A stretch of 30,027 nt of DNA from a virus (lineage: Duplodnaviria; Heunggongvirae; Uroviricota; Caudoviricetes), in the IMG/VR virus record IMGVR_UViG_2609459840_000012, positions 1 through 30,027 of that record. The stretch is one strand, 5' to 3'. Below the pieces are notes generated by a model. The model saw only the letters and a list, made by a program, of their open reading frames with translations, had not been told where the DNA came from and searched no databases. Of this stretch, positions 3,633 through 7,923 are shown piece by piece. The first letter of the stretch is position 1. Each line of letters starts with the position of its first letter. The position numbers and the translations under genes were made by a program.

Positions 3633-4565
3633 TCACACCTGTGAGAGTAATTCAGGGTTGGTATAAACCTCTTTAAAGGCCGCATTAATATGTTTTTCTG
3701 TCAGCGCCGCGCCTTCACCGCTGGCGGTGAGCCACGCCTGGTTAAGCGTATGTGTCAGAACGCGTAACGCTCCCGGCTTTTCAGCGATAGCCTGCATGAC
3801 GGCCAGCTCGGCCTCACCACTGATCCCCCACGCCATGGCAATGGCCAGCACATCCGCCTTTTTGGCCTTGCGAAGTTGTTTTGTACGGGCAAGACGGCTG
3901 AACAGGCGCGATAAATCATCAAAGGCGCGGCGTCCACCCTTAAACAATCCGCGCGGGTTACCAATAAGCACCATCCCGATCCCCGTGGCGTCCTGAATTG
4001 CCCGGAGTTGCTCCAGACCGTCAATACCAAGATGATCCGCCTCATCCACAATCACCAGTCCACGCGTTCCCATCAGGCGACGGCGGATGGCGCGGGATAA
4101 TGCCCCTTTGTTCGCGCGGGTGTAATCAATCCCCAGCGCATCGGCCAGCTCCAGCAGACACTCCGTGACGCTGGAGTGCGCGGGTGACAGGGTGATCATC
4201 CAGGTGTTTGGTTGCTCCTGGCAGTAATTACGGGCGGTGGCCGTTTTACCCACCCCGGGCACGCCCACTATGACGTTAATACAGCCCATCAGGCGGACCG
4301 CCTGAAACAGCGCGCGCAGCTCCTGGACTGTCTGCGTTTCCACAAACTGCGGCGGCTCGGGCAGTGCGCTTTGTTTATTCCAGTTCTCATACCAGGAACG
4401 CAGGGAAGCAGCCACAGCAGCGTTATCGCCTTTATATTTTCCCTTACGGAAAGCCGATAATGTGCCGTCGGAAATTCCCGCCTCTCTGGCGATGGCATAC
4501 TGCGTCAGTACGCCGCCATCAATAAGTTCATCAATGGTCTTGATTACATCGTTAATATCAGTCAT
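3633..4565 (-). CDS. Mu B-like transposition ATPase / target DNA activator (310 aa)
   Basis: Walker A GVPGVGKT, Walker B VIVDEADHL, N-terminal HTH, and overall collinearity with Mu B (PEPPxFVETQTV, KKADV..IA.AW, KPGALR). Confidence 0.9.
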   Translation of the reverse strand: MTDINDVIKTIDELIDGGVLTQYAIAREAGISDGTLSAFRKGKYKGDNAAVAASLRSWYENWNKQSALPEPPQFVETQTVQELRALFQAVRLMGCINVIVGVPGVGKTATARNYCQEQPNTWMITLSPAHSSVTECLLELADALGIDYTRANKGALSRAIRRRLMGTRGLVIVDEADHLGIDGLEQLRAIQDATGIGMVLIGNPRGLFKGGRRAFDDLSRLFSRLARTKQLRKAKKADVLAIAMAWGISGEAELAVMQAIAEKPGALRVLTHTLNQAWLTASGEGAALTEKHINAAFKEVYTNPELLSQV

Positions 4566-4636: not shown

Positions 4637-6724
4637 TCAGGCCAGCGGGTCATTTTCTTTTAATTTCGCTTCCAGCAACTGCAATCCCCGCTGGAAATTA
4701 CGCTCGTATTCTTCATCAGGTTCATCGTCAGCGACCGGTTGCTGAACGGTCACCGTATTACCCACAGGGCGGTATATGTTTTCCAGCCAGGGCTCCTGCG
4801 GCTTGTGCTCCAGCACGTTGACAACCTCATCCTCGGCATCACGGATTTTTTCCTCTGCGCGTTTACGCATGCCTTTAAGGCGCTGCTGCTGTTTGTAGTA
4901 TTCCGCGCTGACAGGGAAGGCTTCGCGTTTATTGCCGTCCCATACCGCCTCGCAAATCACGCTGCCATCCGGGCGGCGCACGGTAATTCGTTCGGCATCA
5001 TGAATGTCATAGCTGATAAGTACCTTACGGCCATGCTCGTCACGCAGCTCGGGCGCGTAGTAAATATTATTCAGCCAGCGTATTTCACAGCGTCTTACAG
5101 GGCGCTCCACCATCGGCCGGAACATATCCCGCAGTTCAACATCGGACAGCCATTCAATTTCCGTGTCCTCTTCCGCCAGGCGTTTTTTTCTGAACTCCGC
5201 CGGGCTGTAATGTTTACCGTTCGGCTTCATGGGTAATTCATCGTGCGGCCGGTTGTTGTACCACTCAACACCGTCACGAATGGCATCAATCAGTTCAGAC
5301 CAGGACGGTAAATCACGCATCGCTGACTGCTGCCGGGCGTTCAGCCGTTTGCCCTGTTGCAGGGCACTGAATGCCGAGCGTAAATCGCGGTTGGTTTTAC
5401 GTAACGTCTCGCGATCTGCTCCTTTCCCGAAATAGGTGCGGTATTTACGGGCTATGCGCATCGGTAATGTGCGGTTAAGCCGTTCGATAATGCCCCGTCC
5501 CTGCGGATTACCGGCAATCCCTGTCGGGTGATTAATCCCCAGTCGTGGCAGTATCCCCACAATCTCCTTATCCAGGACGTCGGCGGTTTCCCCGGAGCCA
5601 TTATCCGAGTAATACAGAAACGGTTTGCCATGATGGCGAATACCGTGCTGTATGGCACCGGCTACGGCGAAAACATTTTCAGCCAGGTCAAGGCTCCAGC
5701 CCACCACAAAGCGCGTGCCACCGTCGATAACAAAGGTCACTTCCGGTGCGAATGGCCGCCCGTGAACCGGGTGCGCGCATTTCAGCTTCATGCCGTGACC
5801 GTCACCAATCCAGACATAATTCACCGGCATTTTTGACCAGTCGCGGCGCGTGAATCCCTCAAGCTGGCGGTATTCACTGCCGGTAACCCGTCCTTTTTGT
5901 TTCACCACTTCCGGCAGTTTCTTCATTGCGCGGCGAATGGTGTCATAAGACGGCATGATATCGAGCATATAAGGCTCATCAGCGTGCCGGTGCTGCCATT
6001 CGGCAACAAAATCCTCGTAAGCCTCGGTCATTGGTCGGCCGTTTGACTGGCGATACTGCGCCAGAAATTCGGGCAACCAGTTAATATCTTCGGCTTTTAT
6101 TTCCTGGCGTTTACCTGGTGCCAGCAAAAGCAGGCGTTCAGCAGCGTTCTGTGCCTTATTAAAGGCCGCAATCCAGCGTTTCAGCGTGATTTCACTCAAC
6201 ACGCGACTGTTTCCCTTTCTGGCGTTCGCTATCTCAACCATTGCCACAATGCGCTCATCCAGTTGCGAGTGTGACAGGCGGTCAACGATGAACCGGATAG
6301 CTTTAGCGCAGCTGAAACCGGGTTGTTGCGTGAATTTCAGCACCTCACTGACGATCGCAATGCGTGCGTCTGCCACCTGGCGCTGGTTTTCAGTCAGGGC
6401 ATTGAGGCGTTCGACCATCAGTTGTGGTGATCCGCGATATGCCTCCACCGCATCAACCACGGCAGACGAGCGTCTGGCCTTTGTCACCACCGGAGCCGGT
6501 GATTCATCGGCTTTTTGCGTCATCAGTTGCAGGGCATAACGTTCGCGTAATGCCTGCTGTGTCACTTCAGGTAAACAGTCAATGCTGTATTCAAAACCTT
6601 TAGCGCCTTTCTTGCGGCGTCTGCTGGTTTCGCTGGTTGCATACTTCCTGATTGAATAGCGAACGCCTTGCTCCGTTCCCGGCATCCCCGGTAATCCAAC
6701 CAGTTCTTTGACTGAAGCAAACAT
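4637..6724 (-). CDS. Mu A-like DDE transposase (695 aa)
   Basis: Size, position between ner and B, N-terminal DNA-binding region, a central region with acidic residues consistent with a DDE catalytic core, and an acidic C-terminus; gene order ner-A-B is Mu-typical. Confidence 0.9.
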   Translation of the reverse strand: MFASVKELVGLPGMPGTEQGVRYSIRKYATSETSRRRKKGAKGFEYSIDCLPEVTQQALRERYALQLMTQKADESPAPVVTKARRSSAVVDAVEAYRGSPQLMVERLNALTENQRQVADARIAIVSEVLKFTQQPGFSCAKAIRFIVDRLSHSQLDERIVAMVEIANARKGNSRVLSEITLKRWIAAFNKAQNAAERLLLLAPGKRQEIKAEDINWLPEFLAQYRQSNGRPMTEAYEDFVAEWQHRHADEPYMLDIMPSYDTIRRAMKKLPEVVKQKGRVTGSEYRQLEGFTRRDWSKMPVNYVWIGDGHGMKLKCAHPVHGRPFAPEVTFVIDGGTRFVVGWSLDLAENVFAVAGAIQHGIRHHGKPFLYYSDNGSGETADVLDKEIVGILPRLGINHPTGIAGNPQGRGIIERLNRTLPMRIARKYRTYFGKGADRETLRKTNRDLRSAFSALQQGKRLNARQQSAMRDLPSWSELIDAIRDGVEWYNNRPHDELPMKPNGKHYSPAEFRKKRLAEEDTEIEWLSDVELRDMFRPMVERPVRRCEIRWLNNIYYAPELRDEHGRKVLISYDIHDAERITVRRPDGSVICEAVWDGNKREAFPVSAEYYKQQQRLKGMRKRAEEKIRDAEDEVVNVLEHKPQEPWLENIYRPVGNTVTVQQPVADDEPDEEYERNFQRGLQLLEAKLKENDPLA

Positions 6725-6726
6725 AA

Positions 6727-6957
6727 TTACGCGACCTTACGAATGTAGCGGCTGGGCCAAATCTCCTCGGGCGGCACCCCCAGGCATTCCGCGATAATCC
6801 CCTCATACTTGGGAACATGGCGGTATACCGCGTTGTACAGATTGTTCTGACCCACGCCAGCTTTACGGGCCAGCGCCCTCATGCTTCCTTCTCTGGCTCT
6901 GACTTCCCCCAAAATTCTTTGAGGATGCCAATCAGGCTTAACTTCATTTCTCGCCAT
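6727..6957 (-). CDS. ner: Ner-like DNA-binding regulator (76 aa)
   Basis: Translation MARNEVKPDWH...EIWPSRY matches the Mu Ner / Nlp family signature (DWH near the N-terminus, IWPSRY near the C-terminus). Stop lies 2 nt from the A start. Confidence 0.85.
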   Translation of the reverse strand: MARNEVKPDWHPQRILGEVRAREGSMRALARKAGVGQNNLYNAVYRHVPKYEGIIAECLGVPPEEIWPSRYIRKVA

Positions 6958-7141
6958 GATTCATCTATCCTAAAAAGTTACGAAATTTGATAACTAAACT
7001 TAGTTATCAAGTTTGATATAAGTATTGATCCACTTCTGCTTCATGTAAAGCAAAAAAACATCTTTCTTTTGTCTATTGTGGATCAATGGTTGCTGACAAC
7101 ACTAAAAGTTAATAATTTCAAATTGATAGGAAGAAAAGAAA
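6958..7141. promoter_or_regulatory. Divergent c / ner control region with operator-like inverted repeats
   Basis: 24-bp near-perfect palindrome TTGATAACTAA-AC-TTAGTTATCAA at 6987-7010; 10-bp inverted repeat ATTGATCCAC (7024-7033) / GTGGATCAAT (7078-7087); recurring TTGATA motifs. Candidate c promoter TTGCTG-17-TAATTT at 7090-7118. Confidence 0.5.
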
Positions 7142-7687
7142 ATGAACAAGCAAACAACAACATCTCTTTCTTTTCCTGGTGGTAGAAAAGAAAGCATTGC
7201 TGAGCGTCTGAAAAGGCTGATTGGCTCCCGCAGCGTCAGAGCTGCAGCAAGAGATTGGGGGCTTTCATTTTCAACACTAAACAATTATCTGTCTCGTGGC
7301 ACTGAGCCATCCTTAAGTGTCGCCCTTCAGATTGCGTCTATCGAAGGAGTAAGTGTTGAGTGGCTATGTGGATTCAGTGATGCATCACAAGTGAATCGGT
7401 GTGAGATCAAGGAAAATCAAGATGAAAGCAAGAAGATAATTATGACGATTATCAGCGCACTTGATGAAAAAGACTTAGAGCAGCTATCGAAAAATTTGGT
7501 TCTGAATGGAGCCAAGTACTTAGCTCGGTTGTTAGAGCCTGAAAATCAAGATCTAATCCGCTTAGAAGGAAGGAAAAGAATAGCTGCATTACAGCTTGAA
7601 GGTATGTCTGACGAACGCGTCAGAGAGATTTTGGAAGAAACTGAGAGAAGTCGCAAATCTAACGCGGTAGAACCAAAAGCGGGTTAA
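7142..7687 (+). CDS. Transposable-phage repressor c-like protein (181 aa)
   Basis: N-terminal CI-type HTH (SIAERLKRL...AAARDWGLSFSTLNNYL); C-terminal segment (LEGMSDERVREIL) resembles the Mu c C-terminal region; divergent from ner as in Mu; AGGAAG Shine-Dalgarno. Confidence 0.8.
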   Translation: MNKQTTTSLSFPGGRKESIAERLKRLIGSRSVRAAARDWGLSFSTLNNYLSRGTEPSLSVALQIASIEGVSVEWLCGFSDASQVNRCEIKENQDESKKIIMTIISALDEKDLEQLSKNLVLNGAKYLARLLEPENQDLIRLEGRKRIAALQLEGMSDERVREILEETERSRKSNAVEPKAG

Positions 7688-7761
7688 TAGCATTAGCCCG
7701 CATTTTGCACTATATCGAGTATTTCGCATTGTTTGGAACGCCTTAAAAGACTAAAACCACA

Positions 7762-7773
7762 GTATCAAATGAG
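7762..7773 (+). repeat. Mu A-type end-binding-site-like repeat (L3 position)
   Basis: GTATCAAATGAG; the reverse complement CTCATTTGATAC resembles the Mu att consensus core TTCAYTNNAARYRCGAAA. Confidence 0.5.
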
Positions 7774-7811
7774 TTGCCGATTTTATAATAAATGACTAAT
7801 TATTGCACAAT

Positions 7812-7824
7812 CGGTATCAAATAG
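7812..7824 (+). repeat. Mu A-type end-binding-site-like repeat (L2 position)
   Basis: CGGTATCAAATAG; same core as the copies at 7762 and 7907. Confidence 0.5.
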
Positions 7825-7906
7825 ACCTTATCCGCACATCTAGCCATCACCTGTTTTATTTCAGTATCTTACAGGTGATTTCACCTCCTTTCACTAAAAC
7901 CCTTGT

Positions 7907-7923
7907 CGGTATCAAATGATTCA
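7907..7923 (+). repeat. Terminal Mu A-type binding-site-like repeat (L1 position) with candidate terminus CA at 7922-7923
   Basis: CGGTATCAAATGATTCA; read inward from the end this is 5'-TGAAT-CATTTGATACCG, compared with Mu 5'-TGTAT-TGATTCACTTGAAGTACG. Confidence 0.5.

Follow-up and report, generated by a model that had tools for sequence, protein, structure and literature searches.

Which proteins read the control region between the divergent repressor and ner genes of a Mu-like Escherichia coli prophage, and at which of its many repeats does each of them act? The question is raised by a 184-bp region (positions 6958-7141) of IMG/VR virus record IMGVR_UViG_2609459840_000012, a stretch of 30,027 bp that is referred to here as the window. 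An earlier note on this DNA had placed the region between divergent repressor and ner genes, had compared it with the Mu region that holds the repressor operators and the transposition enhancer, and had offered its repeats as candidate repressor, Ner and transposase sites without allocating them. The location is borne out by matches to Pfam, to PHROG and to the Mu Ner structure 1NEQ, and the region is the lysis/lysogeny (early) control switch of a Mu-like transposable prophage, i.e., an uncharacterised example of a well-known kind of phage control region. Regarding the allocation, comparison with related prophages makes it probable that two distinct sets of sites are arranged around the leftward early promoter of the switch, Pe, with Ner acting at 6977-7020 and the repressor at 7024-7044 and 7078-7087. 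The features on which this proposal turns are the following:

6977-7020: proposed Ner operator, four half-sites in alternating orientation (GTTAC 6977-6981, GATAAC 6989-6994, GTTATC 7003-7008, GATATA 7015-7020)
6987-7010: 24-bp palindrome, the central half-site pair of the proposed Ner operator plus its flanks
7021-7049, minus strand: predicted early promoter Pe, with -35 TTTACA (7049-7044), a 17-nt spacer, -10 AATACT (7026-7021) and a predicted start at ~7014
7024-7044: proposed repressor operator at Pe, consisting of the left arm ATTGATCCAC (7024-7033) and a weak dyad partner CTGCTTCAT (7036-7044)
7078-7087: proposed second repressor site, the right arm GTGGATCAAT, next to the candidate repressor promoter
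7090-7118, plus strand: candidate repressor promoter Pc, weak and uncertain, with TTGCTG (7090-7095), 17 nt and TAATTT (7113-7118)
7111-7116, plus strand: alternative Pc -10, AATAAT

The palindrome reads TTGATAACTAA-AC-TTAGTTATCAA according to the repeat finder, with perfect 11-bp arms about a 2-nt centre, and can be extended to 15-nt arms at 93% (6983-7014). It is unique in the 30,027 bp with respect to perfect arms of at least 9 bp and a spacer of at most 6, and palindromes with 11-bp arms appeared at a frequency of 0.0005 in 2000 random 184-bp sequences of the region's composition. The inverted repeat formed by ATTGATCCAC and GTGGATCAAT is perfect over 10 bp, with 44 nt between its arms and a GATC in each of them (7027 and 7081). 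The hexamer TTGATA is found on the plus strand at 6987, 7013 and 7123 and, as TATCAA, at 7005; these four copies, a count that none of 5000 simulations reached, compare with 0.28 expected in the region and with 19 copies on both strands of the whole 30 kb. The arms of the palindrome account for two of these copies, the copy at 7013 falls in the fourth Ner half-site, and the copy at 7123 falls in a degenerate IHF-like element, although a weak third repressor half-site is another possibility for it (TTGATAGGA compared with TTGATCCAC). The same hexamer is contained in the end-repeat core (C/T)ATTTGATAC(C/T), which is present in all three left-end repeats of the prophage. The palindrome, the inverted-repeat pair with its GATC sequences, the TTGATA half-sites and the hexamer in the end repeats had all been listed before, and each is found where it had been placed.

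The relatives used to interpret these repeats are prophages or contigs with a gene for a repressor or Ner homologue, taken from complete E. coli genomes, phage records, IMG/VR and metagenomes, and cited below by locus number where needed. With the repressor as query, 71 loci were collected, every one of which has a divergent ner homologue upstream, and they provide 55 distinct intergenic regions of 140-194 bp. A Ner search of species-representative genomes returned at least five distant loci, which were excluded from the analysis. In this set the sequence features, their conservation and their covariation with two genes can be observed directly, and one order of blocks is common to the 55 regions, given here with ner at the left:

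Block 1: ner ribosome-binding site
Block 2: four half-sites in alternating orientation
Block 3: AGTATTGATC
Block 4: ~10 variable bases
Block 5: CATGTAAAG
Block 6: A-rich stretch
Block 7: CTTTCTTTTG
Block 8: 40-60 variable bases
Block 9: element often matching the IHF core
Block 10: GGAAAAGAAA-ATG

A separate search of viral contigs for TTGATAACN6GTTATCAA gave 94 loci, none with a ner or repressor homologue, and these were set aside as chance matches.

The four half-sites of the second block follow the layout (A)GTTAyCC-N4-5-GGATAAyCC-N5-7-GGTTATCC-N4-5-GGATAA in ~50 related regions, and the palindrome of the window is an AT-rich version of the family's central half-site pair, with the same 14-bp start-to-start spacing. 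These proposed Ner half-sites would lie within the leader of Pe, in the first ~40 bp of the predicted early transcript, which agrees with the Mu record, where the Ner-binding region is placed between the Pe start and ner. A different owner may be suggested for the palindrome, namely the immunity repressor, which as a dimeric helix-turn-helix (HTH) protein would use it as its main operator, in the manner of lambda or P22, with the arms of the inverted repeat being secondary or irrelevant. CI-type repressors usually bind palindromes, this one is by far the best dyad of the region, and it lies just downstream of the Pe start, so that a protein bound there would block transcription too. Nevertheless, the comparison leaves this assignment with very little probability. 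An identical Ner protein (WP_001575658.1) is encoded by three E. coli prophage types, represented by the window and L001, by L002 and by L003, whose repressors are ~40% identical and differ in the DNA-binding region; AAATTTGATAAC-N6-GTTATCAAGTTT is kept in all of them, and the homology of the window to L003 ends directly past the palindrome. Because it is unchanged with the same Ner and three repressor alleles, the palindrome does not follow the repressor. Moreover, L113 has CGGATAA-type sites instead of the palindrome together with a repressor HTH that is almost that of the window, and immunity alleles acting on one common operator would not give distinct immunities.

What the half-sites do accompany is helix 3 of Ner, which is the recognition helix in the Mu Ner structure (as cited in PMC11960120):

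Helix 3 QNNLYNAV: half-site TTGATAAC
Helix 3 PDTLKNAL or QDSLKNAL: half-site CGGATAA(T/C)C
Helix 3 PSTLKNAL (L162): half-sites ACTAAT, GCTAAG and GGTAAG
Helix 3 SRDSLKSV (L116): half-site GGATAT

The transposase is a further candidate, with the TTGATA/GATAAC repeats acting as enhancer sites bound by the N-terminal or end-binding domains of MuA. In agreement with such a role, the MuA of the window has a Mu-type N-terminal DNA-binding domain, ATTTGATA is common to 6985-6992 and the three end repeats, the Mu enhancer is located in the equivalent region (PMC3145075), and in L116 a single block of inheritance comprises the ner-side sites, ner and codons 1-45 of gene A. However, L113, L114 and L004 share the end-repeat core ATTTGATAC and carry CGGATAA-type sites, without TTGATA, on the ner side, whereas L115 combines the ner-side sites of L004 with different end repeats. 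The N-terminal recognition helix of MuA is nearly the same in the window and in L113 (GTEQGVRYSIRK and GTAQGVRYSIRK, respectively), but their ner-side sites differ. In Mu, in addition, MuA reads the enhancer with its N-terminal subdomain and the ends with other subdomains (PMC3362531), so that a hexamer shared by both is not expected. We therefore consider a transposase assignment of these repeats unlikely. As an echo without covariation with either the transposase or the ends, TTGATA does not indicate that one protein reads both places, and the tie to the transposase and the end repeats that the earlier note had drawn from it is not supported; on the sequence comparison, the echo in the window lineage is derived from the TT flank of the Ner half-site. 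Of the unallocated candidates of that note, the palindrome thus goes with ner and, as described below, the inverted-repeat arms go with the repressor class.

Two observations concern the history of this stretch. Between L116 (positions 806-1228; LC727881, Mu_JNE082796) and the window (6305-6724), MuA is ~98% identical from residue 46 onwards and ~50% identical in residues 1-45. The homology joint therefore falls within gene A; the DNA-reading part of the transposase N-domain forms a single inherited cassette with ner, the intergenic region and the repressor. Because residues 1-45 diverged together with ner, L116, with a MuA 87% identical overall, was dropped as a means of separating Ner from MuA. 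In L115 and L154, ner and the intergenic region are of the Yersinia vB_YpM_5 type, the end repeats have TATTCAAGATA(A/G) in place of ATTTGATAC, and the divergence of MuA is greater (65% identity to the window, compared with 74%).

A role of the palindrome at the level of RNA was also weighed. A transcript starting at ~7014 would open with a 10-bp stem and a 4-nt loop, the folding energy of the 70-nt leader is -15.1 kcal/mol (z=-2.95 relative to shuffled sequences), and central palindromes are present in relatives too, with other sequences; a stem-loop of this kind, heading the early transcript, might serve the stability of the ner-A-B mRNA or the translation of ner, and it would be compatible with DNA binding. 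As the main function of the palindrome it is improbable, since in many relatives the halves are not fully complementary (e.g., GGAGTAATCC and GGTTATCC) and the outer half-sites have no pairing partner, which fits repeated protein half-sites better than a selected hairpin. Based on the covariation with Ner helix 3, the constancy across repressors, the position, the palindrome of phage D108 and the behaviour of the Ner-family protein EnrR (both discussed at the end of this text), the half-sites at 6977-7020 are most likely the Ner operator.

The inverted-repeat arms behave differently. The left arm takes up the 17-nt spacer of Pe, where a protein, once bound, would exclude RNA polymerase, and the bases that follow the ATTGATC within it change with the class of the repressor:

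Repressor class ...EPSL[SN]VA... (class A): CAC
Repressor class ...EPSF.AM... and a few others: CAAAT
Repressor class ...PG[LV]DVV...: TACAAAAAG

Among 34 distinct combinations of Ner helix and repressor HTH, with class A defined as [ED]PSL[SN][VA], GATCCAC (after ATT) was found in all eight class-A combinations and in none of the other 26 (Fisher p=5.5e-8, a value that ignores shared ancestry). Among the class-A cases, L113, L125, L126, L158 and L162 have other Ner types and MuA proteins that are only 37-74% identical; five other Ner types and MuA proteins down to 33% identity are represented in the class as a whole, and prophages with the MuA of the window (95-100% identical) but another repressor have different bases after ATTGATC. 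L113, with another Ner, other Ner sites and nearly the same repressor HTH, has both arms, as TTGATCCACAT and ATGTGGATCA, and the right arm is retained in L001 as GTGGATCATT. Across 30 representatives, the second copy of the Pe-spacer site nearer the repressor gene matches better than cross-class pairings do (Mann-Whitney p=6e-4); it is individually significant (p<=0.01 against shuffles) in nine of the 30, and full-length second copies of 16-19 nt are present in L129, L150 and L158. The dyad partner CTGCTTCAT, which completes the proposed operator at Pe, was spotted by eye and matches at five of nine positions in the window.

The right arm nonetheless invites a simpler account, in which function is confined to the left arm, acting within Pe and/or as a single operator, and the right arm is a chance or historical duplicate. 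A distant 10-bp inverted repeat arises by chance in ~5% of AT-rich 184-mers, only the half-site is repeated, and the second copy is not individually significant (p<=0.01) in 21 of the 30 representatives. Set against this are the retention of the right arm both in L001, which is 94% identical overall with its substitutions clustered outside the arms, and in the far more distant L113, the long second copies in the three loci just named, and the excess of self matches over cross-class matches throughout the family. We hold this account to be rather unlikely, albeit one to be kept in mind. Weak when taken alone, the inverted-repeat pair is supported by the comparative data: the arms track the repressor class, both are kept in L113, and second copies occur family-wide, so that the arms are most likely repressor operators.

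Three observations were made around these arms. The GATC in the Pe spacer (7027-7030) is kept in 47 of 54 distinct regions and the second one (7081-7084 in the window) in only 15; among the seven regions counted as lacking the former, L138 and L140 have shorter regions and carry ATTGATC outside the counted interval. The Pe-spacer GATC may make repressor binding or Pe activity sensitive to Dam methylation, or it may just be part of the operator half TTGATC. Helical phasing of the repressor sites was considered, and no claim is made of it, as the 54 bp (5.1 turns) of the window has no consistent counterpart of phase in the relatives. An IHF site at the right arm was rejected, because GATCAATGGTTG, i.e., ATCAA-TGGT-TGC, does not fit WATCAANNNNTTR.

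The predicted Pe is the sole sigma-70-like match within 6700-8000. In 36 of 53 related regions, TTTAC[AG]-17-AATACT stands at a fixed place, -119 to -124 from the repressor ATG; a variant, TTGAxx-17-AATA[AC]T, is found ~11 bp nearer the ATG in a further nine, which are shorter, while in the remaining eight no such match is among the top two. The annotated Pe of Mu agrees with it in the -35 context (GCTTTACA) and in the length of the spacer (17 nt), and the repressor-class-specific sequence in the spacer of the predicted Pe is a candidate counterpart of the Mu repressor site over the early promoter. For the repressor promoter, the Pc candidate is the best plus-strand match in the position-weight scan, with a score of 4.5 bits. 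A Mu-like distal Pc (TTACCC-18-GATAAT), which falls inside the Ner sites in several relatives, was rejected for the window, where the -10 would be GATAAC, a poor match.

From these data we infer the pairing of proteins with sites, the promoter starts and the direction of autoregulation, which together suggest the following switch. Pe, starting at ~7014, would drive ner, A and B. In the lysogen, the repressor, probably of the CI/XRE type and bound to the Pe-spacer site at 7024-7044 with ATTGATCCAC as its strong half, would keep RNA polymerase off Pe; it would also bind the second copy of the half-site, 54 bp away at 7078-7087 and just upstream of the candidate Pc, and in this way regulate its own synthesis, the two sites possibly cooperating. 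After induction, Ner would bind the four GATAAC-type half-sites just past the Pe start and hold down early transcription, which is its role in Mu and D108.

Several points weigh against this proposal. The ner gene is co-inherited with the 5' end of gene A, the homology joint of L116 being at about codon 46 of A, so that the separation of Ner from the transposase N-domain depends mainly on the comparison of the window with L113; in addition, the Ner lineage of the window is a single evolutionary event. Regarding the repressor sites, a distant perfect inverted repeat of at least 10 bp is found in 5.5% of random AT-rich 184-mers, which makes the pair marginal by itself, and in the window no more than the initial 9-10 bp of the left site are repeated at the right, so that the right arm would be a half-site. 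ATTGATC is near-invariant in the family and overlaps the -10 of Pe, and its conservation could stem from the promoter and not from the repressor. The distance between the repressor sites is 26-72 bp in the relatives and does not always correspond to whole helical turns, and the position-weight scan revealed no plus-strand promoter conserved at one position across the related regions. Finally, the searched literature contained neither a description of the control region of this phage group nor a binding, transcription or immunity experiment on it.

If the palindrome and the arms are taken up by Ner and the repressor, where would a transposition enhancer be? Three further features bear on this question:

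7062-7071, plus strand: CTTTCTTTTG, conserved in nearly all relatives with any type of Ner or repressor; candidate transposase enhancer site or Pe upstream element
7116-7128, plus strand: IHF-like element TTTCAAATTGATA, degenerate, holding the fourth TTGATA; relatives match the IHF core WATCAANNNNTTR
7133-7194: cluster of the 9-mer CTTTCTTTT/AAAAGAAAG, with GAAAAGAAA (7133-7141), CTTTCTTTTC (7166-7175) and GAAAAGAAAG (7185-7194)

The first of these is the most conserved block of alignment A4 and stands at -80 from the repressor ATG; when up to one mismatch is allowed, a region has on average 0.93 matches in this position bin. The 9-mer has four copies in the window, at 7062, 7133, 7166 and 7186, and in ~50 relatives it is fixed at -80, -8, +11, +24 and +44 from the repressor ATG, while being almost absent elsewhere in ~3 kb per locus; its copy at 7133-7141, GAAAAGAAA, is also the Shine-Dalgarno region of the repressor. 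Within the motif, synonymous positions are frozen in the first 18 repressor codons: the codon before Phe has T as its third base in 42 of 43 cases (baseline in the same genes, 31%), Glu is GAA in 38 of 38 (57%) and Ser is AGY in 36 of 36 (39%), figures that are only indicative because the sequences are non-independent. Of the 53 regions, 17 carry a perfect IHF core between -26 and -30 relative to the ATG and 16 carry it with a single mismatch; in the window there are two mismatches. Pairing of the CTTTCTTTT/AAAAGAAAG copies in the repressor mRNA, as a block of the ribosome-binding site or as a hairpin, was considered and rejected, as RNAalifold returned no conserved pairs in 32 and 28 sequences, and the repressor RNA of the window folds no better than shuffles (z=+1.09).

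In Mu, the enhancer consists of two clusters of MuA sites around an IHF site and overlaps the operators (PMC3145075). In our own reading of AF083977, the Mu motif is CTTTT[CT], which forms clusters around Pe and in the initial codons of c, the IHF core lying between them, and TATCAACGCGTTA stands between the two CTTTTY clusters; D108 has a different repeated motif at the equivalent places. By analogy, the CTTTCTTTT/AAAAGAAAG cluster (7062-7194) might be an enhancer array for the Mu-type N-terminal domain of the transposase, inherited from a Mu-like ancestor in which the Mu-type repressor was later replaced by swappable CI-type repressors with operators of their own. The array would then lie partly inside the repressor gene, which would account for the frozen codons of the first 18 residues, and the transpositional enhancer would be uncoupled from immunity in this phage group. 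We put this forward tentatively, as an idea that is possible and at present doubtful.

Such an uncoupling concerns the type of the repressor. The repressor of the window is just below the curated Pfam cut-offs for HTH_3 (E=2e-4, 21.8 bits; cut-off 23) and Phage_CI_repr (E=7e-3, 17.1 bits; cut-off 22), one or both of which are exceeded by its homologues in L002, L003 and L004, and it matches PHROG 3037 'transcriptional repressor' at E=4.5e-60 and PHROGs 8 and 4 at E ~1e-9. Mu c and D108 c, in contrast, hit HTH_Tnp_Mu_1 at E=5e-54 and 4e-51, while the repressor of the window and its relatives hit only HTH_3 and Phage_CI_repr. BLASTP gave no similarity between this repressor and MuA residues 1-140 (E=2.4), and the MuA of the window retains the Mu-type N-terminal domain (HTH_Tnp_Mu_1, 35.4 bits; cut-off 23.3). 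With a repressor unrelated to the MuA N-terminus, operator and enhancer sites cannot be shared through homologous domains, as they are in Mu. The equivalence to the Mu region that the earlier note had seen therefore stands with respect to the position, which is that of the Mu operator, and to the repeats being very probably protein sites, and fails with respect to the relation between the repressor and the transposase N-terminus. CI-type repressors in Mu-like phages are already known, e.g., in D3112. Pfam gave no Peptidase_S24 hit (LexA-like autocleavage) in the repressor of the window, and its C-terminal half matches no Pfam family. The 3' part of the gene (7541-7686) has ~75% DNA identity to a gene for a 'hypothetical protein' in ~120 E. 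coli genomes (O157:H7, O26, O111, O145), so that the C-terminal domain seems to be common to another element.

The control region is part of the left 7.9 kb of the prophage, which is reversed in the window and followed by DNA beyond its end. The flanking genes and the end are as follows:

3633-4565, minus strand: MuB, on the same strand after MuA
4637-6724, minus strand: MuA, on the same strand after ner
6727-6957, minus strand: ner-like gene for a product of 76 aa, which opens the early (transposase) operon; Pfam HTH_35
6966-6971, minus strand: ner Shine-Dalgarno AGGATA, read from the sequence
7142-7687, plus strand: immunity repressor of 181 aa with a probable CI/XRE-type HTH, not of the Mu-c type (Pfam, PHROG)
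7762-7933, minus strand: prophage left end with three end repeats GTATCAAAT, read on the plus strand; end at 7933

The Ner of the window matches HTH_35 at E=1e-21 (77 bits; cut-off 25), the Mu Ner structure 1NEQ at E=3.7e-13 with residues 4-71 aligned, and the EnrR structure 7F9H at E=2.9e-11, and it has the length (~75 aa), the fold and the motifs (DWH..., IWPSRY) of the Ner family. The context of its Shine-Dalgarno sequence, TA(T/C)CCT(A/T)AAAAGTTA, is kept across the related regions. The repressor gene is followed by ~245 bp that carry the three end repeats, at 7762-7770, 7814-7822 and 7909-7917, and then by the end of the element at 7933; the 184-bp region, with a G+C content of 27.7% compared with 54.9% for the window, is ~800-975 bp inside this end. 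According to gene order and Pfam domains this is a Mu-type early region, with divergent repressor and ner, then A and B, less than ~1 kb from a repeat-bearing left end. In 12 complete E. coli genomes the matches stop at 7933-7936 and the flanking genes differ, which is the pattern expected of a transposing element.

The left end itself (7924-7933) reads 5'-TATAACCAGG in the window, L001 and L003 and 5'-TGTAACCAGG in L002; the terminal dinucleotide of the window is TA, a form that is present at many different chromosomal sites, and the canonical Mu dinucleotide is TG. Beyond it, the stretch 7934-16000 shares 95% identity with lambdoid Stx-converting phages (phage 2851, Stx1a and Stx2a phages), in the part that directly precedes their terS/terL. 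The Mu-like prophage is nested in another, Stx-phage-like prophage, with the junction at 7933/7934, an arrangement similar to that in LC727881 and LC727895, two records of Stx phages with annotated Mu-like insertions. A 1.45-kb query across the region had at least a partial match in 233 of 5426 complete E. coli genomes, with far fewer matches to the ner-to-repressor stretch.

This phage group is common, and since its members insert into other prophages, Stx phages included, the switch decides when a transposing mutagen becomes active. The comparison yields a site-by-site map that is open to direct testing, and it points to the exchange of ner with its sites and of the repressor with its sites as separate modules. 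Moreover, with a repressor of a probably different fold, the group offers a natural test of whether the coupling of immunity and the transposition enhancer in Mu is essential.

Among known systems, the closest is the operator, Pe-Pc and enhancer region of Mu (O1-O3, IHF site, Ner site), which occupies the same place, from the leftmost repressor gene to ner-A-B, ~0.8-1 kb from the left end. The two agree in the -35 context GCTTTACA and the 17-nt spacer of Pe, in the proposed repressor site over Pe, in the proposed Ner sites between the Pe start and ner, and in T-rich motifs resembling CTTT(C)TTTT, located near Pe and within the initial repressor codons, with an IHF-core-like element between them. 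They differ in that the Mu repressor shares the DNA-binding domain of MuA and competes for the same sites, whereas the repressor of the window is unrelated to MuA and probably of the CI/XRE type; in addition, the Ner half-sites are of the GATAAC type in the window and of the CTAAGT type in Mu, and the IHF-like element of the window is degenerate. The CTTTCTTTT cluster and the IHF-core-like element of the window are candidate counterparts of the Mu enhancer.

Ner proteins bind repeated or palindromic sites just past an early promoter and repress it; for the window, candidate sites of this kind are suggested by their covariation with helix 3 and by their position. The palindrome of D108, a phage whose Ner is homologous, is said to be the Ner footprint after the work of Kukolj and DuBow. 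It has 11-bp arms, CCGTGAGCTAC-N8-GTAGCTCACGG, and lies between ner and the early promoter (GQ357916), but its sequence is different, its spacer is 8 nt instead of the 2 nt of the window (GATAAC-N8-GTTATC if only the cores are compared), and the window has two extra flanking half-sites. D108 (L180) also has TTTTGTCTCTATTGAAATCAC at 880-910, close to TTTTGTCTATTGTGGATCAAT of the window (7067-7086), which hints at common ancestry of the region despite the probably different repressor folds. EnrR of Edwardsiella (PDB 7F9H/7F9I) has the Ner-family fold and was crystallised as two monomers on the AT-rich palindrome AATAAATNATTTATT (PMC9023278); it is, however, not a phage early repressor but a chromosomal global regulator, one that opposes H-NS and has a different target sequence.

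Finally, the lambda CI/OR switch resembles the one proposed here in having a CI-type HTH repressor (a probable one in the window) between divergent lytic and repressor promoters, one site over the lytic promoter and another by the repressor promoter (the placement we propose for the window), and a second small repressor acting on the same region, Cro in lambda and Ner here. The differences are that Ner and the repressor appear to use separate sites and not the same operators with opposite preference, that the repressor of the window is without the Pfam peptidase S24 domain, and that a full site plus a half-site is proposed here, compared with the three similar palindromes of lambda.

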